Source: Candidatus Falkowbacteria bacterium RIFOXYA2_FULL_38_12 | GTDB taxonomy: Bacteria > Patescibacteriota > Patescibacteriia > XYB2-FULL-38-15 | Length of the DNA stretch: 64,000 nucleotides | Reading direction: 5' to 3' | Assembly: GCA_001778095.1 (NCBI GenBank) | Contig: MFGA01000006.1 | Span: forward strand, 6,169-70,168 | Part shown: positions 1,505 to 55,875 of the stretch, one piece after another | Layout: every line of letters begins with the position of its first letter | Position numbering within the stretch: the stretch's first letter is position 1 | The notes under the pieces: model-generated | Database searches by the model: none | What the model was told of the DNA's origin: nothing | The model's input: the letters and a program-made list of their open reading frames with translations, nothing else | Made by a program: the position numbers and the translations under genes

Positions 1505-1597
1505 AGGTTGTAAAACGTCTCAACGAGAGGCGTCTTTTAAGATTATTTTTTTACTAAATAATTCGTTTGTTTCGAAAAGCTATTCCGGATGCTGTTT

Positions 1598-1813
1598 TTA
1601 AATACTTTTCAAAATCCAAAGCCTTTTTCTTTTCATAAAATGCGCAATAAAAAAGTATTTTCCATGGTTTGAATTTTTTGTATAAAAGGAGTCTCCTTTA
1701 TTATGCTCAGCTAATCTATTTTTAAGATTTTCAGAAAAATCCACGTAAATTTTACTCGGGAAATTTAAGCTCTGAATTATGTAAACGTAATACATTTGTG
1801 GTGGCCGTGCCAT
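1598..1813 (-). CDS. Small GIY-YIG nuclease-domain protein
   Basis: 71 aa. YYVYIIQS...YVDFSENLKNRLAEHN matches the GIY-YIG core (URI domain). Confidence 0.6.
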   Translation of the reverse strand: MARPPQMYYVYIIQSLNFPSKIYVDFSENLKNRLAEHNKGDSFYTKNSNHGKYFFIAHFMKRKRLWILKSI

Positions 1814-1911
1814 TTGAAGCTCGCGTTATCAAAAAACAGAGAAGAGAAAATTTACTTTGTCCTCCTTCGCTAAGGCTACGGAGGACATTTTTCACTCTAG
1901 CGAGCGAAAAA

Positions 1912-1982
1912 TGGACCCACGGGGAATCGAACCCCGAACTAATCCATGCCATGGATTCGTAATGCCACTTTACTATGGGCCC
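1912..1982 (-). tRNA. tRNA-Ala(GGC)
   Basis: Manual cloverleaf: acceptor GGGCCCA/TGGGTCC with G3:U70, anticodon loop ATGGCAT, T-arm CGGGG-TTCGATT-CCCCG, discriminator A, no encoded CCA. 71 nt. Confidence 0.8.
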
Positions 1983-2072
1983 AAGCGACCGAGTTTAGCT
2001 CGGTAAACTTATCTTATATTAAGAATATTTTGCTAAATAGTCAAATATCAGTTATAAAAAAGATCTTAATGA

Positions 2073-2930
2073 CTATTTTTTATTTTTTCCTTTTATTCTT
2101 TTTACGTTTTCGGGTGTTGTTAAGTAATTTTCTTTTGAAATAACTTTTCCACCTGATTCGAGTTCAAGTTTTTGTCTGGCGTCGCCAGCGATTTTCCCGC
2201 CTTTTTGGGCGGCTATCTTATTTTCAATAAAACCATTAGCGTTTCTGTCTCGGGTTATTTTAGTAGTTGACGCTTCGCCAAGCATTGAAAAAATCAACTC
2301 AAGGTCATTCATGTGATCGCGCAAATTTTCTCTCTTCAGATTTTTGTGTTTCTTGTATTGACTTGGCATCATTCCGAAAGTAGCTTTGGAAATTTCAGCG
2401 GTTAATATTTCAAATTCTTTTTGCTCCTTAATTTCACGTTTTTTCCACTCGTCGGTTAACTCTTCTCGAATAGCAATTCCTCGCATCCTTTTCTCTATCC
2501 AATCGTCGGAATACCCCTTCAGCTTATAAAGCATTCTTGTTCTTTTCGTCGCCAATTCAGGATTTTCTATTTCTTGCACCCGTTCATATCCGATTTTAGC
2601 CAGCCAACGTTTAAATGGTTCGGCGTTTGGTGATGGAATGGATTGGATAATGCGAAACATAGTTTCCGTGTCTGCGCAGTCGGTTTTATAATATTTTCCA
2701 TCATTAGCCATTAATTTCAGTTGTCCGATTTTTTCGGACACCTCAGCGTAGCCTTCAGTAGTCAGTTTTTTCTTTAAATCCCCCCAGTATTTTCTCGGCC
2801 TGTCTGTGCCAGTCAAAGCCTCAATTACATCAATAATCGAAAACCACCATTCTTTTTGAAAAATAGTTTTTCTGATAGATTTGCCCTTGAAAATAGCAAT
2901 GTGATTTGTAGGATTTGGATTTTTTTTCAT
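2073..2930 (-). CDS. Bro-N domain protein / DNA-damage-inducible protein D-like (phage antirepressor family)
   Basis: 285 aa. N-terminal WWFSIIDVIEALTG region matches the Bro-N fold. Overall resembles DinD. Confidence 0.55.
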   Translation of the reverse strand: MKKNPNPTNHIAIFKGKSIRKTIFQKEWWFSIIDVIEALTGTDRPRKYWGDLKKKLTTEGYAEVSEKIGQLKLMANDGKYYKTDCADTETMFRIIQSIPSPNAEPFKRWLAKIGYERVQEIENPELATKRTRMLYKLKGYSDDWIEKRMRGIAIREELTDEWKKREIKEQKEFEILTAEISKATFGMMPSQYKKHKNLKRENLRDHMNDLELIFSMLGEASTTKITRDRNANGFIENKIAAQKGGKIAGDARQKLELESGGKVISKENYLTTPENVKRIKGKNKK

Positions 2931-2933
2931 AAT

Positions 2934-5255
2934 CTACGGCAACGGTGTCGGAATTGGCGCCGGGTTTTCAACAATCTTGTTTTCCAGCATTTCCAGCTTA
3001 TCGTTTACTGTTTTGTTTTCAGGATCTTCTCTTAATATCTTTCTTAATTCTTTAATCGCCAGACTTTTTTCTCCTTGCTCTTCATAAATCGCCGCTAAAT
3101 ACCAATGAGCATTGGCAAATTTAGGTTCAAGTTCCAATGTTCTTTTTAGTTCAGCGATAGCTTTGTCTGTTTCTTTGTTTTGATGATAGAGCAATCCAAG
3201 CTGGAAGGAAATTCCCAAATCGCTTGGTAAGCTATAACGCATGGCTTCAAGTTTTGCGATGGCTTCTTTTGTTTTTCCTTGGCGACTAAAAACTAAAGAT
3301 AATTGAAAATGGGCCGGGACATAGTCGCTTTTTAGTTCAATGGCTTTATTGAATTGCTCTTCGGCTTTTGTCAGATTTTCTCTTACTTCTGATTGAACTT
3401 CATTTTTTGGTCTTTCTCCACTATTCCCTAAAATTAAATCAGCAATGGTAATATAGGTTTTGCCCAGCTCGTTATAAAAAACAGGATTATTCGGTTCCAG
3501 TTCTATCGCTTTTTTCCAGGAATCAATGGCCCAACCACCGGCTCCGTCAATAAAAGGCATTACGGTTTGATAGACAGAAGCGAGAACACTCCAGTTAGTT
3601 GAACTTTGCGGGCTAAGAGCTATCGCTTTTTTTGCCGAATTTAAACTTAGGGCTGTTAGATTCTCCACCTTTTTCGCTCTTTCTTCTGTTGCCTCAAGGC
3701 TTATCTCATTGCCAATTGAAAGAAGAAGACTCTGGGCAAAGTTTTTAAAGTAAATATCATTCCAGCGATTTTTGGCGACAGCAATATTAAAGTATTTGCT
3801 CACTTCTTCAACGGCGCCTCCATCATTACTGATTGCTAAAGCTTTTTTTGAAGCAAGGTCTGCCATGTAGCGTTGACCGACAAGATAAAAAACGGAGATG
3901 GAGAGAATAATGCTTAGTGACAAGAGAAAGGATAAAACCAAAGAGGTGCGAGGGTCTTGCCTTAATGATGTTTCCCAAAATTTATGAGAAATGGAAACAA
4001 CTATCAAGGCGGAGAGAAGCCAAAAAGAAAATTCCAGAGTTAGATTTGATGAATAGAGAAATTTAGCCACCAAAAGCAGGAACCATGACGAAGCGACAGC
4101 TAATTCCATTGGCCAAAAATCACCCTTTTCTTTGATTAAATCCGTTAATGATTTTCCTCCCAAAAAGAGAATCATAAATATCCACGATAAAAATCCGATA
4201 AGTCCGATAGTGGCCAGGGTAGTGATTACTTTTGAAGAAGACTGGTCAAATTTTATATTCCAAAGAGGTGTTTTATTGATATCCGCCGGTTTAAATTCAT
4301 TATAGTCAAAAACAAAAGTGCCGGGCCCGGAACCAAAGAAAGGGTTTTTTTCCAAAGTTTTTTGCGCTACTTGGGCGCTCAAGGAAAAAGACGGGGTGAT
4401 TTCCGCCGGTAAATTTAAATTAAGAGGCGTTCGAATGAAAAAGAAAATAACCCCGATTAAAAGGGCGATCGCCGGTAAAATTGACCAAGATAAATTTTTT
4501 ATTTCCGGGGCTTTTATGACTATAAAAGCAAGGGTGAAAGCTGTGCCGATAACAAGGCTCGCCCAAGCCATTCGCGAGTCAATGGCTAGCAGTAAAAAGA
4601 TATTCAAGAGAGATAATATTGTGAGAAAAATATTTTGTAATATTGTGGAAGGTTCTTTTAGTTGAAGGGTGGCGTGCGTTTTGAAAAGCATAGCGGAAGC
4701 CAAGACAAAACCCAAGGCTGAAAAAATTCCCAAAGCGGTTAAACTGCCAATAGTGTTTCCCGTCCAGTTTGGCGCGAGGCTCGCCGGCAGTAATCCCAAG
4801 ATTCCGAATAAAGAAAAGATGGAAGTTAAAAAAGAGCCGACAAGGAAAGCGTAGATTATTTTTTTTATTTCTTTCAATTCATCAATATTGTTGATGATAA
4901 TAAAATAAAAAATAATAAAGCAAAATAGAGTCAGAAAAGAATCTTTTTCTACTCCGGAGGAGCCGACAAAACCTCTGAATCTATCGCTTCCCAAGAGCGT
5001 CGAGAGAAAATAAACTCCCAAATAGATAATCGCCAATAAATTAAAAAAACTTTTTCGCCAAATAACTTTTTTGGAAGCGATCATTTTCCCCAGCCAAGCC
5101 AATCCGGCAATAAGGGTGAGAATGACTAAAAGATTTTGCTTATTAAACTCAAGCATTTCCAGAGTGAAGGGAAGAAAAAAGATCGGGAGAAAAATTAAGA
5201 GAGCATAAAGACAAGTTTTAATAATTTTTCCGCACACGTTGGCGAGAGTAGGCAT
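2934..5255 (-). CDS. Polytopic membrane protein with O-antigen-ligase-like (Wzy_C-type) core and C-terminal TPR repeats
   Basis: 773 aa. About 10 predicted TM helices in the N-terminal 450 aa. C-terminal ~300 aa has TPR-like repeats (ELEPNNPVFYNELGKTY..., AIELKSDYVPAHFQLSLVF...). Confidence 0.55.
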   Translation of the reverse strand: MPTLANVCGKIIKTCLYALLIFLPIFFLPFTLEMLEFNKQNLLVILTLIAGLAWLGKMIASKKVIWRKSFFNLLAIIYLGVYFLSTLLGSDRFRGFVGSSGVEKDSFLTLFCFIIFYFIIINNIDELKEIKKIIYAFLVGSFLTSIFSLFGILGLLPASLAPNWTGNTIGSLTALGIFSALGFVLASAMLFKTHATLQLKEPSTILQNIFLTILSLLNIFLLLAIDSRMAWASLVIGTAFTLAFIVIKAPEIKNLSWSILPAIALLIGVIFFFIRTPLNLNLPAEITPSFSLSAQVAQKTLEKNPFFGSGPGTFVFDYNEFKPADINKTPLWNIKFDQSSSKVITTLATIGLIGFLSWIFMILFLGGKSLTDLIKEKGDFWPMELAVASSWFLLLVAKFLYSSNLTLEFSFWLLSALIVVSISHKFWETSLRQDPRTSLVLSFLLSLSIILSISVFYLVGQRYMADLASKKALAISNDGGAVEEVSKYFNIAVAKNRWNDIYFKNFAQSLLLSIGNEISLEATEERAKKVENLTALSLNSAKKAIALSPQSSTNWSVLASVYQTVMPFIDGAGGWAIDSWKKAIELEPNNPVFYNELGKTYITIADLILGNSGERPKNEVQSEVRENLTKAEEQFNKAIELKSDYVPAHFQLSLVFSRQGKTKEAIAKLEAMRYSLPSDLGISFQLGLLYHQNKETDKAIAELKRTLELEPKFANAHWYLAAIYEEQGEKSLAIKELRKILREDPENKTVNDKLEMLENKIVENPAPIPTPLP

Positions 5256-5294
5256 AAAAATAAAATTATTTTAGATTTAGGGAGTATTTTACGA

Positions 5295-5398
5295 GTCATT
5301 CTGAGCGGAGCGACCCCGCAAAAGGCGGGGCGCGTATGCGGGCTAGAAAAGAATATCGCTCGCATTCGCGAGAGATCCTTCACTGCGTTCAGGATGAC
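5295..5398. repeat. Hairpin repeat family A copy 1 (GTCATTCTGAGCGGAGCGA...TCAGGATGAC)
   Basis: Imperfect terminal inverted repeats, about 104 nt. Five near-identical copies elsewhere in the window. ORF-track ORF 5195..5383 is repeat-derived. Confidence 0.8.
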
Positions 5399-5568
5399 GA
5401 CTCATGTGGCAAGTTTTGAGAAGAGACTATTACTTTTTATTTTATTATACCATAATTATAAAAAAATATTTTTCATATACAACAATCCCTCGCTGGTTGC
5501 GAGGGATTGTACTTATCACAGTTGTGTCCCGTACCCAGAGATACAACTGATCTGATAATGCGAATTAA

Positions 5569-8500
5569 TTATTCCGCTGCGGGAGCTGATTCTGCCGGTG
5601 CTTCCGGGGCTGGGGCCGGCGCCTCTACTACTGGCGAAGGAGCTACTTCTTCCGACGCTTCTACCGCGGGTGCCTCTGGAGCTACGGGAGGAGCTTCTGC
5701 CGGAGGTTCGTCGCCATCGGTAGGAGCAGGCTCGACTGCCGGCGCTTCCGGTTCCGATTCAGCCGGGGCGGGAGATTCTGCTGGCGAGGCTTCGGCTGGA
5801 GGCGATTCAACACTTGGCGCCGGAGCCGGTTCTGCCTGAGGAGTAACGGGATCATCATAGCCACTGCGTCTGGCAATTACCAACCAATCAAAAGATGAAT
5901 TGGACATGCCGCCATTTAATTCTTTTATCTTAAAACTGGTTTGAGTTTTTTCCGCGATATAAATTCCGTTTCCTGCTTCCGTTAAAGTTATCATCACCTT
6001 AAGAGGTGTTTTGTCGGAAATATTTTTTACAAAATTTTCATCAACCTCACTTAAGTCAATTATCTTTTCTCCATTTTGCAGTTTTCCCGAACCGGAAAGA
6101 GTCAGCTCAACATCAGTAGAGGTAAGACCAAACATTTCTTTATCAAAACCGTTGTTAGTTAAATTAATTTTCAAAACTCCATTCTCGTCTATACTCCATC
6201 TATTATTAATGCCGGCAATTTTTTTGATATTTAAAATTGAAAAATTATTAGCATCCAAATCGCCGGTTAGTTTTTCCAAGGTGAGGACTTCGCCACTTCC
6301 CGGGTCGGTTTCACTGGACCAATCAATACTCACAAAAGCGATAATTGTTCCGGAAGGTTCATTGAAAGGTTCAAGGGCTAAACCAATATATGGAGCATGG
6401 TCTGCTTTCATAGCAACCCCGGGAGTGCTTGAGCTTGTTAATTTGTCTCCGCGAATAATTGGGCCGTTTTCATTGGAAATTTTAACGGGAACACGACCAG
6501 CAAGAGCGACGGGGTAAAGGTCGGGGAGACTTGATCTTCCAAGAGTCATACCAGGTTTTGTGGAAACTATTCCCATAACCGTATTATCGTTAGCTATTTT
6601 GGATTTTATTACTTTTTCATTATTATTTGGATCAATACTAACAACATCGCCCGGTTCTAAATTTTCAGAAGAAGAATAATTTTCGGCTAAGTCGATTTCG
6701 GTGATAGCTAGAGCTTCGGCATAGATAGTTCCAGCTGATGCGGCAGTAAGGCAGGTCGGTGTACCATCATCAACGCACAGTGATCCCTCTATAACAAGTT
6801 CATTCGGTGAATCGTCATTAACATCACCAGGATCATTGTAAGGAGTTCGGCCAATATTTGCGCGATTAGCATAAAGACCAAGTCCGCCGGTGAAATATCC
6901 GGCGTAGCCATTGCTAGAAGCGGTAGTAGAATATATACCATAATTAAGTTGATCGTTGTTTCCTGCATCAGTTGCCGTAAAATATCCCGCTGTTGCAGTT
7001 GCTCCTGGAGCGATAAAGTAGCCAGCCGTACCAGTACCAGAGGTAACCGAAGAGTAAATACCGTAATTAGTTCCAGCAGCTCCAGTAGCTTCCGTATAGA
7101 TGCCATAAGCAACTCCTGCACTTCCAGTTGCGGAAAATTTTGCTCCATAACCTGTATCAGAAGCCGAAGTTCCATATATGGCGTAATTGGTTCCAGTTGC
7201 TCCGGTTGCAACAGCATGAAGAGCATAAGTAGTCCCCCCAGATCCAGATGCAACAAAATATCCAGCTTTACCGTTGTCAGAATATGATCGAGCGGAAATA
7301 GCCAAAGAAATAGAATCAATATTGTCCGTATCTGTCGCTTCAAAAAATCCTGCAGTAGCATTACTACCACTGGCAACAAAATGCCCACCAACGCCGACGT
7401 GAGAAGCGTTAGAAACATTTATTCCGTAGTTAGTTCCTTCGTTAGCCGTGCTAGCAGCCTCAAAGCGTCCAGCAGTTCCGTTAAAAGAAGAAGTTTTTGC
7501 ATAAATACCGTAGTTTACTCCGTTTGTTGCATCTGTTTCTTCAAAATAACCTGCGTACCCGGTTGCTCCCGACGCAACAAAATATCCTCCGTAGCCAGAA
7601 GCATTTGAATTAACCGCATTTATTGTTCTTGTATCAGTTCCGGCGCCAAGAATATCAAGAGTATAATTATCTGTTGGAGATCTTCCTATTCCGATATGGT
7701 TTCCTGTCACTCCGTCAACATAGAGGGTTGTTCCGTCAACGATAAAATCGTCATCAACCGTGAGATTGTGCCCATCATGGATAGTTACGTTTCCTGCTGG
7801 ATGTAAATCAAGATCCCCCCCGCTTGTGGTGATGGAGTTTGTTCCGTAATTTGTTGTGGCTCCAGCCAAAAAGGCAGTGTCCGTGTAGACACCAAGGCCT
7901 CCCGTAAAATATCCGGAATAACCAGAGGCAGATGAAGTTAAGCCGTACACTCCGAAATTAGCTCCGTTTCCTGTTGCAGAGCCATATATTCCATAGTTTG
8001 CTCCTGTCCCCGAAGAAACACTGTAAATTCCGTAAGTCACTCCAGTTCCCGAAGCAGTAAAATATCCGGCAGTACCGGCCGCTGTTGTGTTCAAAGCATT
8101 AATCGTTCTTGTGTCCGCTGATGCTCCAGAAGTAACGTCAAGGGAATAGGTATTAGTTGGGTCGGTGTTTATTCCGATTCTTTCCGTAGTAGTATTAACA
8201 TAAAGAGTATTTCCATCTATAAGAAGATTATGAGCATTAGGAATAGTTACATCAGCAAAAGGGTGTAAATCAAGATTTGCCGCGCTTGTGGTGATGGAGT
8301 TTGCTCCGTAAGTCGTGGCATTCCCAGCAATAAAAGAAGTCTCGGCATAGACACTTCCGCCAACGCCAAGAAGGTCGGCGACGTAAGCATCGTTGCCGGA
8401 AAGAGTGAACCCGGCATTGGTTATACTTTCAGAACTTGCGCCAATCCAAAGATCATCATTGACATATAACCCTTTTCCTCCAGAAAAATATCCGGCGTAA

Positions 8501-9774
8501 CCGGCCGCAGAAGCTGTAATGCTATAAATACCATAATTAATACCAACGGCATCTGTTGCCGTAAAATACCCCGCATACCCAGTCGCCGAAGTATTAGATC
8601 CATACACACCATAAGTTGCTCCGGTAGCGCCAGTCTTTTCAAAATATCCTGCTGCCGCGCCGGCGGTGGTAGAAGCCGCAGTTCCGTAAACACCATAATT
8701 AGTCCCTGTCGCTCCGCTCGCATTAGCATAAATTCCATACGCCGCCGTAGTTCCCGAAGAAGCAAAGTATCCGGCATAACCCGAGGCTTGAGCATTTTCA
8801 GAATTGATTGTTCGGGAATCAGTTGAAACAACATCTAACCCATAAGACGGGGTGTCATTATTAATACCGACTCTATTATCTCCGGCGCTAACATAGAGAA
8901 CACTGGTATCTACAATAAAGTTATCGTCAGTAATAAAGACATCACCTCCGGCAGGGTTTAAAGTAAAATCAACCGCTCCGGTTGTTGTGATTGAACTTGT
9001 TCCATAAGTTGTGGCGTTGCCAGCAATAAAAGAGGTGTCGGTGTAAATAGTTCCTTCAACGCCAAGAGTGCCCGCGATAAAAGCGTCATCTCCATCCAAA
9101 GAAAATGCATTGCTAAGAGTCTCGGCATTGGCGCCTAAATATAGATTGCTATTAATATAAGCTGTTAAAGTTAAAGTATCCGTGTTAGCGTCGCCCAAAG
9201 ACCATGATCCGGCAACTGTTTCGTCTTGTGCTAGTCGGCCAAAGGCGGATTCATCCAAATCGTCAAGCATATCCGCGTTAAAAGAATATAAAGACGCGCC
9301 AATCCTTTTTCTTGGTGTCATTTCGGCGTCAGCTCCTACCGTAACTCCCAAAAAGTAAGCAGAAGCGGAAAAATTAATACTAATCGCGCAATCGCCAGAT
9401 TCCCCCAGAAGAGTGGAAAAAACTCCGTTGGAAATAGTAACGGATTTTGCGGATGGATTAAATGCCGCGCCACAAGCGTCACTTTCTCTCGCGCTCCAAA
9501 CAACATTTCCTCCGGCGGCGGCATCATAAATGGTGAAAATAATATTGTATGCTCCATCGGCAACCGGAACGCCGGAAGAATCTTGTAGTTTTCCTTGATA
9601 ATTTAATTCTTTATTAACCGCGGCCTTGGCCCATTGAGGCGACCATTGTTTTATCGCCGAAAGAGCAATTATTCCCGCGCTTATTAAAGACAAAACGCCC
9701 AAAATCAAAACCAAGAGAGTGAGGCTCCCCTTATCGCGATTGGTGTATTTGGTTTTTCTGTTTGGCAAGGTCAT
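5569..9774 (-). CDS. Giant secreted/surface repeat protein with Gly/Tyr-rich tandem repeats and Pro/Ala/Glu-rich C-terminal tail
   Basis: Probable start at the second Met (MTLPNRK, 9774), followed by a signal-anchor helix. About 40 degenerate repeats of the YG(I/V)Y...AGYF type. C-terminal about 90 aa are PAPEAPA-like. The first 21 codons of the track ORF (5569..9837) come from repeat family G. Confidence 0.7.
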   Translation of the reverse strand: MTLPNRKTKYTNRDKGSLTLLVLILGVLSLISAGIIALSAIKQWSPQWAKAAVNKELNYQGKLQDSSGVPVADGAYNIIFTIYDAAAGGNVVWSARESDACGAAFNPSAKSVTISNGVFSTLLGESGDCAISINFSASAYFLGVTVGADAEMTPRKRIGASLYSFNADMLDDLDESAFGRLAQDETVAGSWSLGDANTDTLTLTAYINSNLYLGANAETLSNAFSLDGDDAFIAGTLGVEGTIYTDTSFIAGNATTYGTSSITTTGAVDFTLNPAGGDVFITDDNFIVDTSVLYVSAGDNRVGINNDTPSYGLDVVSTDSRTINSENAQASGYAGYFASSGTTAAYGIYANASGATGTNYGVYGTAASTTAGAAAGYFEKTGATGATYGVYGSNTSATGYAGYFTATDAVGINYGIYSITASAAGYAGYFSGGKGLYVNDDLWIGASSESITNAGFTLSGNDAYVADLLGVGGSVYAETSFIAGNATTYGANSITTSAANLDLHPFADVTIPNAHNLLIDGNTLYVNTTTERIGINTDPTNTYSLDVTSGASADTRTINALNTTAAGTAGYFTASGTGVTYGIYSVSSGTGANYGIYGSATGNGANFGVYGLTSSASGYSGYFTGGLGVYTDTAFLAGATTNYGTNSITTSGGDLDLHPAGNVTIHDGHNLTVDDDFIVDGTTLYVDGVTGNHIGIGRSPTDNYTLDILGAGTDTRTINAVNSNASGYGGYFVASGATGYAGYFEETDATNGVNYGIYAKTSSFNGTAGRFEAASTANEGTNYGINVSNASHVGVGGHFVASGSNATAGFFEATDTDNIDSISLAISARSYSDNGKAGYFVASGSGGTTYALHAVATGATGTNYAIYGTSASDTGYGAKFSATGSAGVAYGIYTEATGAAGTNYGIYSSVTSGTGTAGYFIAPGATATAGYFTATDAGNNDQLNYGIYSTTASSNGYAGYFTGGLGLYANRANIGRTPYNDPGDVNDDSPNELVIEGSLCVDDGTPTCLTAASAGTIYAEALAITEIDLAENYSSSENLEPGDVVSIDPNNNEKVIKSKIANDNTVMGIVSTKPGMTLGRSSLPDLYPVALAGRVPVKISNENGPIIRGDKLTSSSTPGVAMKADHAPYIGLALEPFNEPSGTIIAFVSIDWSSETDPGSGEVLTLEKLTGDLDANNFSILNIKKIAGINNRWSIDENGVLKINLTNNGFDKEMFGLTSTDVELTLSGSGKLQNGEKIIDLSEVDENFVKNISDKTPLKVMITLTEAGNGIYIAEKTQTSFKIKELNGGMSNSSFDWLVIARRSGYDDPVTPQAEPAPAPSVESPPAEASPAESPAPAESEPEAPAVEPAPTDGDEPPAEAPPVAPEAPAVEASEEVAPSPVVEAPAPAPEAPAESAPAAE

Positions 9775-9782
9775 AAAAAAGG

Positions 9783-9880
9783 ATTTTCCCCTCCCTTGAG
9801 GGGAGGGGTTAGGGGAGGGTGATATTTGTAGAAACATTTCACCCCCACCTAGCCTCCCCCATCAAGGGGGAGGAATGATA
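9783..9880. repeat. Repeat family G copy 1 (palindromic G/C-rich element, arms CACCCTCCCCTAACCCCTCCCATCAAGGGAGGGG)
   Basis: Two about-35-bp inverted arms separated by about 14 nt. A full copy lies at 32050-32140 and a single arm inside uvrB. Confidence 0.7.
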
Positions 9881-9881
9881 T

Positions 9882-12800
9882 TTATTGTCTTTCCAGCGCT
9901 ACATTAAATCTCACCGCTGCTCCTTTTTCTTTAGCGGTTAAATCTATATCATCGGTTTTTCGCGGTTTGAACTCCGGTTTACTGAAAGTCGCGTAATAAA
10001 CATTATTTCCAACCAAGAACGAATATCTTCCATTGGCATCGGTGACCTGTGTTTCCAATAATTTGTTATATTCTTTTTCAAAAATTCTGGCGACAGTTAA
10101 TCCAACAGGTTTTTTGGTATTTTTATCATAAACAACACCCCAGTTTTTCGGTTTTTTGGCTCGCGCAACTCTTTTCATGACAAAAAACAAGACAAAGTGT
10201 CCGGCCAAAAGTCCGAACATCCACGGCTTTGGCGAAATCATTACCGAAGCCATGGTAACGAGAAGTCCGGTCAAGGCGACAAGATCCTGCGCTCTTTTGC
10301 CAAAATATCCCAAAATAATCTTTTTATCAGTTACGGTTTTTTTACTTTCAATCGGATCAATGGGAATGTTTGGTGTGATGGTGGTATCTTTTTCGTTAAC
10401 AGTTAATTCTTCGCCATGATAAATATCTAAAAATTGGATATCTTCTTTTTTATCTTTCATGTAAACGGACGGAAAAGTGAAATTCGGTTTTGAAACTGCG
10501 ATATTGTATTTTCCCGGATTAACAAAAAAGGCAAATCTTCCTTCTCGGTCAGTCACTCTTGTTTGGACAAGTTTATTTGTTTCTTTGTTATAAAGACGAA
10601 CGATCGCCAGATCAACCGGCATTTTTGATAAAGAATTGTAGACAACGCCCCAACCTTTTCTTTTTTTAGGAAACAAGAGCAAAAGAGGTTGAGTAAAAAG
10701 GAATTGCAGAAAAGGAAGCAGGCTGGAAAAAGAAATAGCGGTTCCGTAGCTGATTATGGCAACGGCGGCAACGGTCGGCGCGGCGATATTTTCATTTGCT
10801 TTTTCAACTTCGGGATTATCTAAAACTTTTTCAGTGATTATTTCACCACCTTCACTTATTTTCTCGGCAATATTTTTGCTGACATTGGCAATATTCTCCG
10901 CAACGGGGGCTTCTTCGTTCCAGATAGGCTTTTCTTCGACAACAATAACCTCTTTTTTTAATTCAACAGTTTGGTTTATGTTATTTGTTGTTATCTCAAA
11001 TATTTCAGTTTGTTTTTTTTGATATCCGCTTTTTTCAACCACCAAGTAATATTTTCCTTTTGGTGTAATAAAACTATATTCGCCGTATTTGTTAGTATAT
11101 TGTGGATTCTCTTGGTTGAATTTTGCTCCGCTCCAGATAGTCTTGGGATTTTCCGTAAAAAGAGTGACTTTTGCTCCCTCTATTTTATTATCCCCTCTTC
11201 CTTCCCAGACAAAACCCGAATTGAGAAGAGAAAAACTTCCATCAATTTTGTCAAAAGTTCCATCTTCGTAGCTTACATATAAAGAAAACAATAGATTGGC
11301 CGGCTCATCAGGTATTTCAAAAGAAGTTTCATAAAAATTTTTACTATTCAGAGAAAGAAGATATGAAGAATTTTTAAAAATAATAGCAAGTTTTTCGGAA
11401 TTCTTGGTAAGTTTTTCTTTTTCTATTTTTAAGAGAACGGTTTTGTTGGTTAAGATTGATATTTGATTGTCTTGATTCGGTGAAAGTTGGATAGCGCCGT
11501 TGGCGGCAAGGAAACTAAAATCATTGATAGTCAGTTTTTCTTCTCCAAGAATAATTTTTTCTTCATCTATTTTTCCAAATATTTCTCCGGCTATTTCTTC
11601 AATTTCACCTTCTATGGCCGGTGGCAATTCCGGTTCTCCCGGACAACCGTCCCCCACGCAGGGCGGTTCTTCTGGAGGTTCTTCGGGTTCTTCTTCAGGC
11701 TCTTCATCGCACTCATCGCCAACGCACGGCGGTTCGACCACTACAACGATCGTCGCTTGAGTGAGCGCGCCGGCAGAATGATTTAGTGAAGCGTCATATG
11801 CGAAAGCGGTGTAATAAACCGGTCTGTTATAATCAGCTGCTGCAAATCTTATATCTGAAAAGTTTTCGGCTCTTCCGTCAAAAACCAAATCTCCTTCTTC
11901 CGGATTCGCCGGATGACTACCAAAGCTTCTTTTTATTAAGACTCTTGTAAAATCAGGATCAGCGGGGTTTGTCCAAGAAAGGTTGATTGTTCTTGCCGGA
12001 GTGGCGGTTGCGTTAAAATTACTGACATTGGCTGGCGGAATGAGGTCGTTTGTAGTAGTAAAAGTTTGATCTCCGGAAATAGCTGTATTTCCCCAAGCGT
12101 CAGTGGAAGTAATAATAAAATGGTAAGCTGTAGCAGTTTCCAGTCCTCCTAAAACAACAGTGTGGTTTAAAACAAAAGCGACTCCGGTGGCCATGCTTCC
12201 ATAAAGAATATTTTTTCCGTAATTTACAACACTGGTTGCCCCTTCATTAGTTTCCCAAGTTATTTCAGCCGAACTGTTTGTTATATTTATTGTTTGAATA
12301 TTGGAAATTACCGGCGGAATAATATCTTCTTCTGGTTCCGGTTCTTCTTCCGGCGGAATCACTGGAGGTGGTACAACCGGTCCCGGGGGAACTCCGCCTT
12401 CTTCAACTTCAGCGCTAACTGTCACCTGCTCATTGCTTACTATGTATATTGTTATTGTTTTTGAATCTCCAAAATTTCCGCCAATTTGGATAAAGTATGA
12501 ACCGGTCACGGCCGGATTTGTGATTCGTTCATTTCCGATCCCCTCTTCTGTCGTGTTTAGTCCTATTCTTATAATCACTGCGGAACTTCCGGCAATATAT
12601 GTTCCCGCATTGCTTGGCGCGGTCAGGGTAAAAACTCTGGCGGCAACCGATACTCCCCATTCTGTAGCCGTTGCTCCGCATCCGCCGGCTTCATTGTTAA
12701 TATCTTCTTGCGCTCCGTCATCAAGTAGATCAACGTCTCCACAATCAATGCCACCTAGATCGGCCGCAAAGGCACTGGGAAAAGTAATGGCAATGGTTTT

Positions 12801-12998
12801 ATTTTCTATGATTGCGGTTGAAAGAGTGGTAGTAAAAGAAAATTCATGATTAGCCGCGGCGCTGGTGGCAGTTCTTGATAAAGTGTCTTTTGCTTCAAAT
12901 AAAAGCCCGGCATTGGTTGGTTTTAAGAAGATAAGAGAGCCCAGTGTTACAACAGAGAATATTATCAGGTAAATCAACTTTTTGGTTAAGGAAAACAT
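9882..12998 (-). CDS. Large cell-surface protein with FN3-like and carboxypeptidase-regulatory-like beta-sandwich domains and internal TM segments
   Basis: 1038 aa. Signal peptide. Cys-Pro-Glu-rich linkers (PPCVGDECDEEPEEEPEE). Three CarboxypepD_reg-like modules (e.g. GVVYDKNTKKPVGLTVARIFEKEYNKLLETQVTDANGRYSF). Hydrophobic segments between modules. Confidence 0.65.
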   Translation of the reverse strand: MFSLTKKLIYLIIFSVVTLGSLIFLKPTNAGLLFEAKDTLSRTATSAAANHEFSFTTTLSTAIIENKTIAITFPSAFAADLGGIDCGDVDLLDDGAQEDINNEAGGCGATATEWGVSVAARVFTLTAPSNAGTYIAGSSAVIIRIGLNTTEEGIGNERITNPAVTGSYFIQIGGNFGDSKTITIYIVSNEQVTVSAEVEEGGVPPGPVVPPPVIPPEEEPEPEEDIIPPVISNIQTINITNSSAEITWETNEGATSVVNYGKNILYGSMATGVAFVLNHTVVLGGLETATAYHFIITSTDAWGNTAISGDQTFTTTNDLIPPANVSNFNATATPARTINLSWTNPADPDFTRVLIKRSFGSHPANPEEGDLVFDGRAENFSDIRFAAADYNRPVYYTAFAYDASLNHSAGALTQATIVVVVEPPCVGDECDEEPEEEPEEPPEEPPCVGDGCPGEPELPPAIEGEIEEIAGEIFGKIDEEKIILGEEKLTINDFSFLAANGAIQLSPNQDNQISILTNKTVLLKIEKEKLTKNSEKLAIIFKNSSYLLSLNSKNFYETSFEIPDEPANLLFSLYVSYEDGTFDKIDGSFSLLNSGFVWEGRGDNKIEGAKVTLFTENPKTIWSGAKFNQENPQYTNKYGEYSFITPKGKYYLVVEKSGYQKKQTEIFEITTNNINQTVELKKEVIVVEEKPIWNEEAPVAENIANVSKNIAEKISEGGEIITEKVLDNPEVEKANENIAAPTVAAVAIISYGTAISFSSLLPFLQFLFTQPLLLLFPKKRKGWGVVYNSLSKMPVDLAIVRLYNKETNKLVQTRVTDREGRFAFFVNPGKYNIAVSKPNFTFPSVYMKDKKEDIQFLDIYHGEELTVNEKDTTITPNIPIDPIESKKTVTDKKIILGYFGKRAQDLVALTGLLVTMASVMISPKPWMFGLLAGHFVLFFVMKRVARAKKPKNWGVVYDKNTKKPVGLTVARIFEKEYNKLLETQVTDANGRYSFLVGNNVYYATFSKPEFKPRKTDDIDLTAKEKGAAVRFNVALERQ

Positions 12999-13010
12999 CG
13001 CTTTACTTTT

Positions 13011-13249
13011 AAAACTCTAAATCCGAAATCCTAAACTCTAAACAAATACTAATATCAAAAGCCCCCTCAATTTATCATCCCGAGCTTGTCGACCGCGTGT
13101 CGCTAAAGCTTCAGCGAGTGGCGCAGGGATCTCACGCCGTGGTTAAAGAAGTATTATGGGATTTCTCGACAAGCTCGAAATGACAGAAATAGTTTTTGAT
13201 TTTGTATTTTGGATTTGTTTAGGATTTGGTGCTTAGGATTTAGGATTTC
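13011..13249. repeat. Repeat family E copy 1 (arms AAATCCTAAACTCTAAACAAA / TTTGTTTAGGATTTGGTGCTTAGGATTTAGGATTT) with a family-C element nested inside
   Basis: Left arm 13011-13046, right arm 13201-13249. The interior carries family-C copy 13073-13195. Same arms at 20621-20759 and inside the 16S gene. Confidence 0.7.
13073..13195. repeat. Repeat family C copy 1 (TGTCATCCCGAGCTTGTCGA...TCGACAAGCTCGAAATGACA) carrying an inserted CGCTAAAGCT mini-hairpin module
   Basis: About-20-bp TIRs. Relative to copy 2 (48102-48180) it has a 33-nt insertion ccgcgtgtcgctaaagcttcagcgagtggcgca. Confidence 0.75.
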
Positions 13250-14199
13250 TTTCCATACTTCTCTAAAATCCACCTATTATATCTTTTTATTCCCAAAACA
13301 AAGATTAAAAAGACAACTAAAATAGTTATTAAAGATATTCCGATAACGCGCCAAGGAAACACCCAAAAAGATTTTTCAGCAATAAGTGTTTGATCGGCGG
13401 ATCCGTAGCCTAGCGTAGCAACTGCTGAATATCGGCCAAAAGCAAAATTATCTTTTTCTTTTATTATTTCAGATAAATTTTCCGCGACATCTTTATTTTT
13501 CCAGGAAACATTATATTGTCGCACTGATCCGGGCAAGGCATTATTAAGCCCCGGGTTTACATCCAACGAAGCGACTTCTTTTCCCCAAATATTTTTTATT
13601 TTTATCTCGCCAATGGGTTTCAAATAAACATTGCCCATATTTTCAAAGCGCAAGGAAAGATTTACCGGCAGATGATTATACATTTTCTTGTCAGCGGAAA
13701 ATTCTATTATTCTAGCCTTCTCTTCGGCCATGCCGGCGATATTTACTAAAATCAAAGTGCCGGTTTTGGAAGTAATGCCAACGGAGTCTTTATTTGCTGA
13801 CGGCATTGCCCAAAGAATTCCGGCGAAATGTCCACCCGGAAAGGCTCCATCGGGAATGTTTATTGTAAAAAGTATATTTTTTCTTTCGTTCGATTTTAAA
13901 GTGACAGTTTTTTCTTTAACGTCAATCCAGTTGGAAAGTTTAGAAGGATCATTTTTATCAGCTATTGGCAAGAAGTTTGGCGTCCCTTTTTCATTTAACG
14001 GTTTAAAATCTCTAACTTCAGCTACAAGAGTTATCGGAGCGGAAGTTTCATTGAAAAGTTTAACAACATCAGTAATCGTCTCCCCTCTTTTGGCTATAAA
14101 TTCCATTGTTGGCGGAGAAATAGTCAGGGCAAAAGAAGAGATAGGAAAAAAACCAGCTAGCGCAATCAGAAGTAGAATTTTTATTATAGTTTTTTTCAT
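13240..14199 (-). CDS. Secreted protein with C-terminal membrane anchor (DUF916/DUF3324-like cell-surface architecture)
   Basis: 319 aa. Signal peptide. Beta-rich ectodomain. C-terminal TM helix followed by a basic tail (KRYNRWILEKYGKKS). Confidence 0.4.
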   Translation of the reverse strand: MKKTIIKILLLIALAGFFPISSFALTISPPTMEFIAKRGETITDVVKLFNETSAPITLVAEVRDFKPLNEKGTPNFLPIADKNDPSKLSNWIDVKEKTVTLKSNERKNILFTINIPDGAFPGGHFAGILWAMPSANKDSVGITSKTGTLILVNIAGMAEEKARIIEFSADKKMYNHLPVNLSLRFENMGNVYLKPIGEIKIKNIWGKEVASLDVNPGLNNALPGSVRQYNVSWKNKDVAENLSEIIKEKDNFAFGRYSAVATLGYGSADQTLIAEKSFWVFPWRVIGISLITILVVFLIFVLGIKRYNRWILEKYGKKS

Positions 14200-14210
14200 A
14201 CAATTTATTC

Positions 14211-14352
14211 TGTCATTGCGAGCCCAGACTTTTTAGTCGGGGCGTGGCAATCCCCTTCTTTTTCTTGTATTGCAGGGGATTGCTTGCACCGTCGCTAAGG
14301 CTATGGTGGCACACAGTCGTCCCCCGCAAAAGGCGGGGTTCTCGCAATGACA
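14211..14352. repeat. Repeat family B copy 1 with perfect 12-bp TIRs TGTCATTGCGAG / CTCGCAATGACA
   Basis: Perfect terminal inverted repeat read directly. The interior contains a CGCTAAGGCTAT mini-hairpin and a ccccgcaaaaggcgggg hairpin. Confidence 0.8.
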
Positions 14353-14357
14353 AACTC

Positions 14358-15050
14358 TTAAAAGTTTCCCGTAGAAATATAAGTAACCGTATGCGAATAG
14401 TTCCCAGTAACTGAACTTGTGGAAATTGTCGCTCTGTAGGTAATTGTAGTTGTACTTGCGTTTATATAACTTGAATAAGAGGCAACGGTTTGAGCAGTAC
14501 TGGTAATCGCCGTATCGGTCGCATTCATTTGTCCTTGGTCTCCCGAAGTTCTAATTCCATATTCTTCACTTCCGGCGCTCACAGATCCATCGGCGACATC
14601 GTTAATATCGTTTGCCCCACTTCTTAAGTTCCCATCTTCAATAACGGTTGTCGTATATCCTTTTTCTGAATTCGTTGTAGTGATAATCGTGTGGCTCCTC
14701 GTAGTAACAGCGTTTCGATCCAAAAGACCAAAATCAATTGAGTTGCTTGATATTGAAAAAGTTAAAGTTGGATTTGCCTCAACTTGTCTAAATCCCCCCT
14801 GATTTCCATAACTTGCGCTTGAAATTGGACCAGTTCCTAATTCTCCCAGAGTGTCCTGTAGTTGGTAGCTGGCAGAGCTTGAAGTTTCCTCCCCGCCGAC
14901 ATTAAAAGAATCCATCCAATTAATATAATTAGCTGAACTCATGGAAGCCAAGGACGTTTTTGGCTCTATGGTAAAAGGAAAAAAAAGACAAAAACAAACC
15001 AAAGCGATTTTTATTAATTTTATGAACAAAACCATCATAAAATAAATCAC
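14358..15050 (-). CDS. Secreted Ser/Thr-rich protein of unknown function
   Basis: 230 aa. N-terminal hydrophobic signal. Rich in S/T/N. Follows the surface-protein genes on the same strand. Confidence 0.45.
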   Translation of the reverse strand: MIYFMMVLFIKLIKIALVCFCLFFPFTIEPKTSLASMSSANYINWMDSFNVGGEETSSSASYQLQDTLGELGTGPISSASYGNQGGFRQVEANPTLTFSISSNSIDFGLLDRNAVTTRSHTIITTTNSEKGYTTTVIEDGNLRSGANDINDVADGSVSAGSEEYGIRTSGDQGQMNATDTAITSTAQTVASYSSYINASTTTITYRATISTSSVTGNYSHTVTYISTGNF

Positions 15051-15089
15051 TTTTATGCAATTAAAGGTACATGGAGACTTGTTCTTTGA

Positions 15090-15218
15090 TAATCCTTTCT
15101 ACTGCAACTGGTAATTTTGGCTCCAAATTGTTCAAAGCTCGTTGAGGTATTACCAATATCTCTCCTCGCTTTTCACAATTTTCGCTCAAAATTACTGCGT
15201 TTCGTAACGAAAGATTAC
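15090..15218. repeat. Repeat family F copy 1 (about 150-bp TIR element AATCCTTTCTACTGCAAC...GAAAGATTA)
   Basis: Near-identical to 52951-53084. Related copies at 58763-58925, 61182-61218 (partial) and 62046-62196 (inverted). Confidence 0.7.
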
Positions 15219-15584
15219 CAAAAAACAAGTCTTAAAAGAATAAAGCTTCTATTCCAAGGGTACGCAAACATTTACAGTCTTGATTCTTGCCTCAATTTTG
15301 GGTACAATTACATTAAGGCAGACTTGTTGCGGTTTGGGAAAGGAACTTTAATCTTTTTAACAAAGCCTCCCCTCTTTCTTTAAATGTTAACAATCAAAAT
15401 AAAGAGCAAAAGTGGATCAGATTGTTAATATTATTGTATACATTATATATATTATAGCATAAAAAAGGCAAAAAGTCAAAGATAGGAGCTTATATTATAC
15501 AATATTGTAAACATAGTGTATAGAGTACTGTAAACATTGAAAAAGAGGCTTTTGGCTATTTTGGTTTCCCCTGCCGTTTCCTGC

Positions 15585-15698
15585 GTCGTTCTGAGGGGAG
15601 CGATCCCACAAAAGGCGGGACACGTATGCGGTCTAGAAAAGAATGTTGCTCGCATCCGTGAGAGATTCTCCATCCACAAAAGGCGGGGTCAGGATGAC
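15585..15698. repeat. Hairpin repeat family A copy 2 (variant ending CCACAAAAGGCGGGGTCAGGATGAC)
   Basis: Aligned by eye to copy 1 and to copy 5 (26325-26442), which shares the same 3' variant. Confidence 0.75.
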
Positions 15699-15866
15699 TT
15701 TTCTGCTAGGACGGTGAAAATCAATAATATTAGTTCTGTATAGATAGTTTCACGCTAAACATTAGATAAATAGGATTTGTTTGGCGTGGAACAGTAGATT
15801 CCCCCTCTTGTCTATGCAGAATAGCAATTCGGAGGGTTCATTGGTACTAAAAATAATATAAAATTT

Positions 15867-16853
15867 ATGAATCCTTATCGTGAACCTAGCGAATTTACAG
15901 AGGCTAATCCGGCAATTGAAGAAATGTTAAAAAGGGAGAGGGCAAAAGAAATAATGAAAGATGATTATTTTGGTCCGGAAGCAGTTAAGACTGTCTTTGG
16001 TATTGAAGTTCTTGATTCGGAAATTCCGTCGCTTCCATATACATTAGAGCAATTAGAACAAGCTAAAGAGCTAGGCGAAATACTTATTTTACGCGTTTCG
16101 CATGATAATAGTGGTAGGCCGATGACTATGGAGCAGATCAATGAAATAATGCAACCCAGAATGAAAAGTAAAATTTTTTGTGATTATCGTCCAGGGGAAG
16201 GAGATTGGTTTAAAAGCGAAGATTTCTATAAAAAAGATTTTATTAAAACGGAATGGAAGCTAGTAAGCAGATCATTTCTTCCAGATGTAACTTCTAAAAA
16301 AAATAAAGAAGGAAAATATGTTAATGGTTCAAGGGGCTGTGGCTACGCATATCAAACTAAAATATTGCGAGAATGGCTTAAATCTATAGATTTCCTAGAA
16401 AAAGATGAAGAGTCAGAGTGTTCCGATAAAATACTTTTAGAATTGTCGGAAGAAGTAGGTCTTAAATTCGGGTCAAGCGCAATTAAGGACTATTCTAAGC
16501 GTTGGCCTGCGAAAAAAGAAAAAAAATTTTGCCGTAAAATAGTCAATTTAAAAATTAATGTAAGGCATAGACAATCCCCAACAGAAATACTCTATGATTG
16601 GATGTTGGGATTTTCCACTAGGGGAGGATTGTCTGTTTCTGATGCAGAGATAGCAGGTTCTATAGAAAGCAGGTTAAAATATTATGGCCTCTTCGGAGAC
16701 GAGAGGTCAAGGGTCTTGTCTCGTAGTTTGTCATCCAGGGGTCGTGTTGTGGGGGTTCATTTTTGCTTTTCATATTTAGGCGGGAGAATGTATATTTTTG
16801 ATAGTTATGCGAGTATAGGTGAATGGGAAGAAGGGTTAATTTCACAGCGCTAA
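15867..16853 (+). CDS. Hypothetical protein, no recognizable domain
   Basis: 328-aa ORF with ordinary codon composition. No motif I can assign. Lies between two family-A repeat copies with a small HTH gene downstream. Confidence 0.55.
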   Translation: MNPYREPSEFTEANPAIEEMLKRERAKEIMKDDYFGPEAVKTVFGIEVLDSEIPSLPYTLEQLEQAKELGEILILRVSHDNSGRPMTMEQINEIMQPRMKSKIFCDYRPGEGDWFKSEDFYKKDFIKTEWKLVSRSFLPDVTSKKNKEGKYVNGSRGCGYAYQTKILREWLKSIDFLEKDEESECSDKILLELSEEVGLKFGSSAIKDYSKRWPAKKEKKFCRKIVNLKINVRHRQSPTEILYDWMLGFSTRGGLSVSDAEIAGSIESRLKYYGLFGDERSRVLSRSLSSRGRVVGVHFCFSYLGGRMYIFDSYASIGEWEEGLISQR

Positions 16854-17166: not shown

Positions 17167-17270
17167 GTCATTCTGAGCGGAGCGACCCCGCAAAAGGCGG
17201 AGCGCGTATGCGGGCTAGAAAAGAATATCGCTCGCATTCGCGAGAGATCCTTCACTGCGTTCAGGATGAC
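17167..17270. repeat. Hairpin repeat family A copy 3
   Basis: Near-identical to copy 1. Sits between the HTH gene stop and the proS start. Confidence 0.8.
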
Positions 17271-20301: not shown

Positions 20302-20400
20302 CACCACGTACAAGGCTTAGGTTAATCGGCTTGCTCGGCGGAGCAATAATCTTTGAAGTTTATTGTTTACTGAGTCATGGATGAACCTACGCCTTGTCCG
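20302..20400. repeat. tRNA-3'-end-associated element, family D copy 1 (CACCACG(T/G)ACAAGGC TIRs), abutting tRNA-Ala CCA end
   Basis: Imperfect 15-bp TIRs. Internal conserved block cggcggagcaataat...ttgtttactgagt. The outer TIR overlaps the CCACCA of tRNA-Ala(CGC). Confidence 0.65.
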
Positions 20401-20474: not shown

Positions 20475-20534
20475 ATATTGCCCCTGGTCCTCCTTCGCCA
20501 AAGCTATGGAGGGACGGGCAGGATTTTTCTTATT

Positions 20535-20606: not shown

Positions 20607-20620
20607 AGGGTTATAAATAA

Positions 20621-20759
20621 AAATCTAAATCCTAAATCTTAAACTCTAAACAAACTCTAATTTTCCAATATTCAAAATTTTAGACAATCGTATTGTTTTG
20701 GACATTTGGATTTTGAATTTTGGATTTGTTTAGGATTTGGTGCTTAGGATTTAGGATTT
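20621..20759. repeat. Repeat family E copy 2
   Basis: Same arms as 13011-13249 and the 16S insert. About 140 nt, forms a long hairpin. Confidence 0.75.
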
Positions 20760-21860: not shown

Positions 21861-21876
21861 TGAGTTTATTGACGAT

Positions 21877-26301: not shown

Positions 26302-26324
26302 ACTAGATTTTCAAGTCATTCTGA

Positions 26325-26442
26325 GCGGAGCGACCGCGTGCCGCCTTAGCTTTAGCGGTGGCGCAAGAATCTCTGGGCTTGTCCCAGAATTGCTCGCATT
26401 CGCGAGAGATCCTTCCCCCGCAAAAGGCGGGGTCAGGATGAC
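26325..26442. repeat. Hairpin repeat family A copy 5 (with internal CCTTAGCTTTAGCGG mini-hairpin in inverse orientation)
   Basis: Same ends as family A. The interior is replaced by a segment with the CGCTAAAGCT module reverse-complemented. Confidence 0.7.
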
Positions 26443-27368: not shown

Positions 27369-27373
27369 AAAAA

Positions 27374-54099: not shown

Positions 54100-55875
<1,776 letters not shown>

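Follow-up and report, generated by a model that had tools for sequence, protein, structure and literature searches.

Seven small hairpin sites in a Candidatus Falkowbacteria contig are probably copies of two related families of a miniature palindromic insertion element

We analyzed a stretch of 64,000 nucleotides (nt) of contig MFGA01000006.1 (positions 6,169 to 70,168 of the forward strand) from Candidatus Falkowbacteria bacterium RIFOXYA2_FULL_38_12, hereafter called the window, in which the original prediction had pointed to a mini-hairpin module present at seven sites. Our results indicate that these sites are probably copies of two related families, type I and type II, of a selfish miniature insertion element similar in kind to repetitive extragenic palindromic (REP) sequences, small dispersed repeats (SDRs), and Rickettsia palindromic elements (RPEs). 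The element is a noncoding, imperfect palindrome of ~25 to 33 nt, and we consider it likely to be selfish DNA and not a host signal. The observation itself was confirmed, and its interpretation was partly supported: among the possibilities raised, that of a tiny mobile hairpin is favored by filled and empty paralogous repeats, by the absence of the module in relatives, and by in-frame insertions in genes of other phyla.

The window is identical to contigs of metagenome-assembled genomes (MAGs) from the Rifle aquifer, and its host is a Candidatus Falkowbacteria member of the candidate phyla radiation (CPR); its UvrB carries the name Candidatus Falkowbacteria bacterium RIFOXYB2_FULL_38_15. The motif CGCYAARGCTA had 6 exact matches on the two strands of the window, whereas matches averaged 0.13 and never exceeded 1 over 100 dinucleotide-preserving shuffles. 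The site at 13091 carries the variant CGCTAAAGCTTCAGCG and hence constitutes a seventh site beyond these matches. With the 13-nt core taken as a loop, perfect flanking stems of 8, 4, 5, 5, and 4 bp were found at five of the six exact sites. A stem of at least 4 bp occurred with P = 0.022 per site among 200,000 random window positions, and the binomial probability of at least five such sites out of six is ~3e-8. The seven sites are therefore real and lie within a few bases of where they had been placed, the motif is more frequent than expected at random, and its stems are complementary more often than chance, all as anticipated. Indeed, we exclude chance, composition, assembly, and contamination as explanations. 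The core motif is short, and most matches to a loop-only 15-mer in viral contigs were stemless and attributable to chance (110 of the 120 listed), which is why a 22-nt pattern with free stem positions was used instead. Against an artifact, however, stand the shuffles and stems described above, the recovery of the identical window sequence in independent NCBI, JGI, ENA, and Logan assemblies, the covariation of positions left free in the search pattern, and the presence of the module, among the type I matches listed, in three cultured isolates (Cerasicoccus arenae, Haloferula chungangensis, and a Maricaulis sp. with a complete genome).

Alignment of repeats with and without the module established that it arrives as a discrete unit. 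In family C, the copy at 13073 to 13195 (plus strand), itself nested between heptamer-repeat arms at 13010 to 13053 and 13194 to 13248, differs from the empty copy at 48102 to 48180 (plus strand; unoccupied target TTGTCG^AGGGATC) by a single 33-nt block. This block, the type II module at 13092 to 13124 (plus strand; ACCGCGTG-TCGC-TAAAGCTTCA-GCGA-GTGGCGC), lies in the loop of the left terminal hairpin, ATCCC-GAGCTTGTCG^-AGGGAT. Among six aligned family-A copies, the filled copy at 26310 differs from the empty ones at 21872 and 39405 by a 32-nt block at the homologous loop position of ATTCT-GAGCGGAGCG^A-AGAAT; this type II module (26333 to 26364, plus strand; ACCGCGTGCCGCCTTAGCTTTAGCGGTGGCGC) is the commonest type II variant in metagenomes. 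The family-D copy at 28777 to 28899 exceeds the empty copies at 20302 to 20400 and 56187 to 56290 (both plus strand) by one 30-nt block, a type I module (28805 to 28834, plus strand; GGCT-CGCC-TCGCTAAAGCTAT-GGCG-AAGCG) placed at the 5' edge of the GGCG loop of the hairpin TTGCTC^GGCG-GAGCAA. All three hairpins already exist in the empty copies, and that of the empty family-D copy that serves as the reference (20331 to 20346) was detected as a stem-loop by a terminator scan. The insert junctions have an ambiguity of 1 to 3 nt and show no consistent target duplication. Family B has only two copies, which differ in a more complex manner at the module, so that the module is visibly nested there but the limits of the insertion are not clean. 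In one of them, the type I module at 14286 to 14310 (plus strand; GCACC-G-TCGCTAAGGCTAT-GGTGGC) occupies the loop of the right terminal hairpin ATTGC...GCAAT and is adjoined by a second mini-hairpin, CCCCGCAAAAGGCGGGG; the other copy lies at 33241 to 33425.

The three remaining copies, all on the plus strand, lie elsewhere. Located 36 nt downstream of uvrB, a type II module (35563 to 35594; CCGCGTGTCGCTAAAGCTATAGCGGCGGTGCA) occupies the tip of the host hairpin CCCCTCC...GGAGGGG, an arrangement found in near-identical form on a metagenome contig (L278). A type I module with an 8-bp perfect flanking stem (1859 to 1886; GTCCTCC-T-TCGCTAAGGCTAC-GGAGGAC) lies 24 nt downstream of the minus-strand tRNA-Ala(GGC) gene and is antisense to the tRNA. 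Another type I module (20487 to 20515; GTCCTCC-T-TCGCCAAAGCTAT-GGAGGGAC), 88% identical over 26 nt to the preceding one, lies in the 59-nt spacer between the tRNA-Arg(CCT) and tRNA-Ala(CGC) genes, both on the minus strand. The landings in the window thus comprise four families of miniature inverted-repeat transposable elements (MITEs), two tRNA spacers, and one gene-distal hairpin; they are independent of each other, and at six of the seven sites the element lies within the single-stranded loop or at the tip of a preexisting stem-loop. Both the discrete insertion of 25 to 35 nt and the nesting in different repeat families that had been proposed are borne out: the gaps of 33, 32, and 30 nt are clean, and the module is found in several repeat families with no relation to each other as well as in tRNA spacers. 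Since the module sits in the loops of older hairpins, its conserved core seems flanked by variable complementary stems, and much of this "variable stem" is host sequence: the core is the guest, and a large part of the stem is the host.

Other small units share these loops. The mini-hairpin CCCCGCAAAAGGCGGGG fills the same loops in other family-A copies. A second mini-hairpin module, CCCCGC-AAAAG-GCGGGG, occupies MITE terminal-hairpin loops in the window (~5312 to 5328, 17184 to 17200, 15602, 15677 to 15689, 26414 to 26433, and 14322 to 14338) and also stands at the loop position that the type II module uses in a different family-A copy. In a Cyclobacteriaceae chromosome (OZ245814.1; L191, 1600 to 3100), a noncoding region of 1.5 kb holds at least 7 copies or variants of the module in both orientations, several of them split at their tips by inserts of ~30 nt, that is, self-nested.

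The two types differ in form. Type I (sites 1861, 14288, 20486, and 28804) has the form stem-(T/G)-TCGCYAARGCTAY-stem and the consensus (t)C-CNCC-(T/G)-TCGC-Y-AA-R-GCTA-Y-GGNG-G(a/g)C-A(a/g)G. Type II (sites 13091, 26340, and 35566, all three on the plus strand) has the form A-CCGCGTG-YCGC-...AGCT...-GCGR-GyGGCGC and the consensus (G)A-CCGCGTG-YCGCC-wwAGCTTTAGCG-GyGGCGC-A, derived from 107 metagenome copies among the matches listed. With the two consensi aligned on TAGCTTTAGCG, that of type II agrees with the reverse-complemented type I sequence at ~22 of 30 positions, from which we conclude that the two types are one super-family in opposite orientations.

We then examined the pairing of type I in 126 distinct copies from the matches listed, obtained with the scan pattern CNCCNTCGCYAARGCTAYGGNG, which leaves free the middle stem pair, the spacer, and three "loop" positions. 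The free stem pair was Watson-Crick in 90 copies (G-C in 58, T-A in 24, A-T in 6, and C-G in 2), and the next outer pair alternated between T-A (49 copies) and C-G (45 copies). The 13-nt core, which had been described as a conserved loop between variable stems, turned out to be paired itself: it prolongs the hairpin through T-A, [C.T], G-C, C-G, and Y-R to an AA tip, with T6-A17, G8-C15, and C9-G14 as fixed pairs and covariation of Y10 with R13 (C..G in 71 copies and T..A in 49). The resulting hairpin spans ~12 positions, with two conserved mismatches (N5.Y18 and C7.T16), the AA tip, and an unpaired ACAAG tail. Paired cells amounted to 94.8% compared to 86.9% after shuffling, and the covariation score was 0.247 compared to 0.107, a value reached in none of 500 shuffles; the score collapsed once partner positions were slid. 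Copies from viral contigs (n = 99) showed the same pairing pattern. The proposed stem covariation therefore stands in part: the element's own stem covaries at a few positions, but much of the variation belongs to host sequence, and the copies at 1861 and 20486 share the stem GTCCTCC/GGAGGAC, so that these two show no covariation between them. The stems also carry a suggestion of strand-specific folding. In type II, 224 G.T cells and 0 A.C cells were counted on one strand, some positions being fixed by the pattern and the filter, and among the mismatches of the free type I pair, 16 were wobble compatible on the reverse strand and 4 on the forward strand.

The preference for hairpin loops extends beyond the window, mainly in type II. 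About 104 to 107 of the 125 to 133 matches listed in a type II scan of metagenome contigs carried the full consensus, the number varying with the filter applied, and among 104 listed copies the immediately adjoining flanks were complementary over at least 6 bp in 14, compared to 1.2 expected from shuffled flank pairing. The stems of these hosts are mutually unrelated (for example, TTTTCAAAACC/GGTTTTGAAAA and CCTTCTCC/GGAGAAGG), and many further copies lie within terminal hairpins of GTCAT...-type MITEs. Type I copies in other phyla are mostly freestanding, their complementarity ending at position -2/+2. These contexts bear on the idea that the module is an ancestral internal segment of a MITE, lost from the "empty" copies by hairpin-mediated deletion or slippage and spread to several families by recombination between MITEs. 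Palindromes are prone to deletion, slippage does occur in this genome (a 21-nt heptamer indel, described below), families A and C share homologous terminal hairpins with the module at the same position, and many type II copies in metagenomes ride in one MITE family. Nevertheless, we regard this history as very unlikely. Most family-A and family-D copies are empty, with intact, shorter hairpin loops; the host stems of type II bear no relation to one another; and the core occurs in MITE-free contexts, namely, the two tRNA spacers, conserved genes, and viral contigs, and as an exact insertion of 10 residues in a conserved protein gene of other phyla. Loss of an ancestral segment fails to explain such solitary and intragenic copies.

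Comparison with relatives also supported insertion of the module. Falkowbacteria genomes with ~77% identical UvrB keep the synteny uvrB-uvrA-uvrC-pgi, and their uvrB-uvrA spacers measure 108 to 322 nt compared to 1181 nt in the window; no module was found in these spacers, and a single one was found in 72 kb of these relatives. A closer relative (L377; UvrB 91% identical, genes with ~92% nucleotide identity) is without a block of ~710 nt (35494 to 36205) that holds the 35566 copy, its sequence after uvrB resuming at window position 36206, and its asnS-efp and efp-uvrB spacers are much shorter than those of the window. The absence of the module at orthologous spacers indicates that the modules and their hosts are lineage-specific gains and not conserved signals. 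Within uvrB itself, the window has an in-frame heptamer-like repeat at 34760 to 34795, and L377 (3217 to 3296) has a fragment of a family-B MITE at the same place instead (UvrB of 726 residues in L377 versus 700 residues). As for strains, 12 contigs from other assemblies were 99.9 to 100% identical to the window. A 21-nt indel at 20739 to 20759, corresponding to three heptamers GGTGCTTAGGATTTAGGATTT, separates the window from MAG GCA_001778195.1 (L128); it is the sole length difference in 23 kb and fits replication slippage.

The element is far overrepresented in public genomes of many phyla and in predicted viral contigs. A type I scan of 596 Gb of species-representative genomes returned at least 120 matches, compared to ~35 expected by chance according to our estimate. 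The matches listed came from Verrucomicrobiota, Acidobacteriota, Bacteroidota, Planctomycetota, several CPR groups, Pseudomonadota, Desulfobacterota, Nitrospirota, Lentisphaerota, Elusimicrobiota, Dependentiae, and others. A complete scan of predicted viral contigs found 104 stretches with the module, some contigs carrying 3 or 4 copies. BLAST of both consensi against the 72,556 plasmids of PLSDB, which are mostly from cultured bacteria and should include some from cyanobacteria, yielded nothing beyond borderline matches of the kind that chance would produce, and the element is essentially absent from this collection.

Fifty of the 127 type I copies listed lie within open reading frames (ORFs) of at least 150 residues. 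In low-GC genomes, the ORFs bearing the module are real genes, encoding ValRS, HsdM, NusA, RlmN, GyrB, and Tgt. Relative to PDB 2ash, the module forms an exact 10-residue insertion in Tgt, and in RlmN it corresponds to a gap of 7 residues within a variable linker. Of the module's six reading frames, five are open, and each of these was observed within ORFs, in both orientations. The element is thus tolerated in frame inside essential genes. A Parcubacteria ValRS gene (L168, 2 to 2617, minus strand) carries two in-frame selfish inserts, one giving the module peptide PSFAKATAGK and the other a MITE terminal-hairpin peptide (...HCEEWSEAERRGNPE...LLRVARNDK...).

The principal rival to a selfish element is a host cis-element acting as RNA, that is, a processing, stability, or protein-binding hairpin tied to tRNAs or other transcripts and conserved through a widely shared RNA-binding factor; the original prediction had suggested a tRNA-linked processing signal. 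The tRNA enrichment is real: 14 of the 127 type I copies listed, and two of the four in the window, lie no more than 200 nt from a tRNA gene, several-fold above the expectation from tRNA density. Of the 11 copies located downstream of a tRNA, 9 are oriented such that the same (reverse) strand would be present in the transcript, a trend that is not significant (binomial P of ~0.07). The G.T-rich stems that fold on one strand only are RNA-like, and conservation across phyla is what a shared recognition factor would give. On the other side, the copies inside ORFs occur in five frames and both orientations, modules are nested within MITEs and within other modules, and the orthologous spacers of close relatives are without the module. 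Moreover, intergenic copies have no orientation bias relative to neighboring genes (17 co-oriented, 12 anti-oriented, and 9 and 10 in two mixed arrangements). Rfam 15 gave no match at the gathering threshold at any site in the whole window, and for the 1861 site, searched with an E-value threshold, the best subthreshold match was to an unrelated small-RNA terminator (E = 0.029). Taken together, the copies in ORFs and the absence at orthologous positions argue against a tRNA-processing signal, and we consider an RNA processing or recognition role unlikely. An intrinsic terminator, which would combine a GC-rich hairpin with a T run, was likewise rejected: a terminator scan of the window called none of the seven sites, and a T run was present only at 1861, on the strand antisense to the neighboring tRNA.

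If the sites are, as we favor, copies of a selfish insertion element, it could be mobilized in trans by an enzyme recognizing one folded single strand, a possibility prompted by the excess of G.T over A.C cells on one strand of the type II stems. Such an enzyme would attack exposed hairpin loops in single-stranded DNA. We offer this mechanism as a hypothesis by analogy with HUH/Y1 enzymes, which act on the REPs of REP-associated tyrosine transposases (RAYTs) and on IS200/IS605 ends, and with IS1397, which inserts at REP loops. Integration of the Cas1 or integron type was rejected on anatomy, as there is no duplicated flank and no R-box. On a 1.2-kb metagenome contig (L374), an IS200/RAYT-like Y1 transposase gene (342 to 791) lies between direct repeats of ~95 nt, and a type II module (97 to 120) is found 25 nt beyond the outer end of the left repeat; the arrangement was seen once and may be coincidental.

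Several results weigh against the interpretation as a mobile selfish element. No transposase or other mobilizing gene appeared among the Pfam labels of genes at 1 to 49 kb of the window, and tblastn with two Y1 transposase queries found nothing in the window and one match in 1.6 Mb of module-bearing loci, which was not flanked by modules. The orientation of the module in the window shows no replichore bias, such as a mechanism based on single-stranded DNA of the lagging strand might predict, but with seven copies, four of which fit the lagging-strand-template rule, this is uninformative. The 12 near-identical strain contigs displayed no presence/absence polymorphism of the module, and there is hence no sign that it is still moving in this population. 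Elsewhere, part of its copy number reflects hitchhiking on an amplified host MITE. The free stem pair is mismatched in 28% of the type I copies, and subfamily structure among related repeat copies can imitate covariation. Finally, REP-type elements do not usually keep their nucleotide sequence from phylum to phylum as this module does, a feature that the interpretation leaves unexplained.

A bolder view, which we hold to be improbable, is that the module is a minimal selfish hairpin replicator of ~30 nt and of an undescribed kind, which would have no dedicated transposase and would invade exposed hairpin loops, in single-stranded DNA or RNA, through ubiquitous host or phage machinery. Such a replicator would have retained its nucleotide sequence in over a dozen bacterial phyla, including CPR bacteria with genomes of ~1 Mb, and in viruses; its nesting would build "Russian-doll" repeats and add peptide insertions to essential proteins. 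Were the favored interpretation as a selfish insertion element correct, it would explain part of the unusual repeat architecture of the host CPR genome, in which hairpins lie within hairpins within MITEs and spacers are inflated 3- to 10-fold relative to relatives. It would also show where some short in-frame insertions of essential CPR proteins (such as Tgt, ValRS, NusA, and GyrB) come from and account for recurrent spurious ORF translations in MAG annotation, such as SAFAKATADK and RRSLGEGG, and the nucleotide-level conservation of a noncoding element of 30 nt across many phyla and in viral contigs would inform how the smallest mobile DNAs move.

The window contains other features of interest. 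Its 16S rRNA gene (54098 to 55874) spans 1777 nt compared to a model of 1533 nt, and the extra length coincides with copies of a heptamer-armed repeat (55348 to 55391 and 55432 to 55486) and looks like a MITE-like intervening sequence. The same heptamer-armed repeat brackets the family-C MITE (13010 to 13248) and occurs at 20618 to 20759. The two empty family-D copies described above abut tRNA 3' ends exactly (tRNA-Ala at 20401 and tRNA-Ile ending at 56186), which suggests that family D targets tRNA 3' ends. At ~15050 to 15870, the GC skew changes sign and the genes flip from the minus strand (410 to 15050) to the plus strand (15867 onward); this intergenic region, rich in promoter-like sites and repeats, may be a replication origin. 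An ORF with a LAGLIDADG domain lies directly upstream of a 5'-3' exonuclease ORF (the pair spans 27452 to 28249 and 26454 to 27440), and the tRNA-Cys gene (27374 to 27446) overlaps the ORF start there, which may reflect a homing-endonuclease insertion or a miscalled start.

We compared the module with known small repeats. A first group comprises the REPs and REPINs, GTAG-tagged palindromes mobilized by RAYT Y1 transposases (Di Nocera et al. 2013, PMC3733652; Bertels and Rainey 2011, PMC3116915). Like them, the module is an imperfect palindrome of 20 to 40 nt with many dispersed, mostly extragenic copies, subfamily stem covariation, many G.T pairs that suggest folding of one strand, inverted doublets now and then (L213 and L215), and some copies inside genes. 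In REPs, however, GTAG is an unpaired 5' tag at the foot of the hairpin, whereas the GTAG/ATAG on the reverse strand of the module lies inside the hairpin, between the outer (CNCC/GGNG) and inner (GCY/RGC) stems; in view of this tag position, the module is not a GTAG REP. In addition, no RAYT gene was found nearby (labels of the window at 1 to 49 kb and tblastn), the copies in the window are all singletons, and the module is conserved across phyla, unlike most REP families, which are lineage specific. A second group, the CGTC-tagged REPs, including Rickettsia RPE-4 and RPE-6, has a stem of 8 to 9 bp beginning with two A/T pairs, a loop of 4 to 5 nt, and a CCA tail (PMC3733652). The module resembles this group in its occurrence with similar sequence in several phyla, the lack of an associated transposase, some in-frame copies in genes, and a type I reverse strand that begins with cTTGTC, similar to the TGTC variant of the tag. 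Nevertheless, membership was rejected, since the module shares only the TGTC-like tag and has ~10 to 12 stem positions with two fixed mismatches, a tip of 2 to 4 nt, and, in most copies, an ACAAG tail.

IS1397 and ISKpn1 insert into the loops of REP palindromic units (cited in PMC3116915). They thus share with the module a target that is the loop of a preexisting extragenic hairpin, but they are IS3-family insertion sequences (IS) encoding a transposase, and the module is a noncoding unit of 30 to 33 nt. The hosts of the module are MITEs; the module itself is not a MITE, being too small (MITEs measure 70 to 300 bp and have IS terminal inverted repeats and a target duplication) and showing no consistent duplication. 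Closer in scale are the SDR4 to SDR6 repeats of Nostocaceae, reportedly described by Elhai and coworkers in 2008 as insertion-like units of 21 to 27 nt capable of forming hairpins. The module resembles them in being very small, noncoding, nested in MITEs, heptamer repeats, and each other, and without a known transposase; its inserts of 30 to 33 nt are slightly longer than the range said to define SDRs, and it shares the discrete insertion and nesting that characterize them. SDRs are reported in Nostocaceae only, unlike the module, which is found in CPR bacteria and many other phyla, and SDR5 is said to insert into HIP1 at GCG^ATCGC, a target different from that of the module. A cyanobacterial origin of the window, suggested by the heptamer repeats, was rejected as the host is a CPR bacterium, and on host range SDR membership is unlikely. 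Rickettsia RPEs are said, after Ogata and coworkers in 2000, to be palindromic selfish DNA of ~100 to 150 bp lying in frame in conserved genes. The module likewise adds a short peptide in frame without destroying the protein, but with ~30 nt (10 residues) it is smaller, and it is spread over many phyla, while RPEs are not known outside Rickettsia. A literature search with either DNA consensus or the peptide translations returned unrelated words only, within an incomplete coverage of the literature. Altogether, the module probably represents a new super-family within a known kind, the very small palindromic insertion elements, and is set apart by an unusual breadth of phyla that includes the CPR, together with viral contigs.

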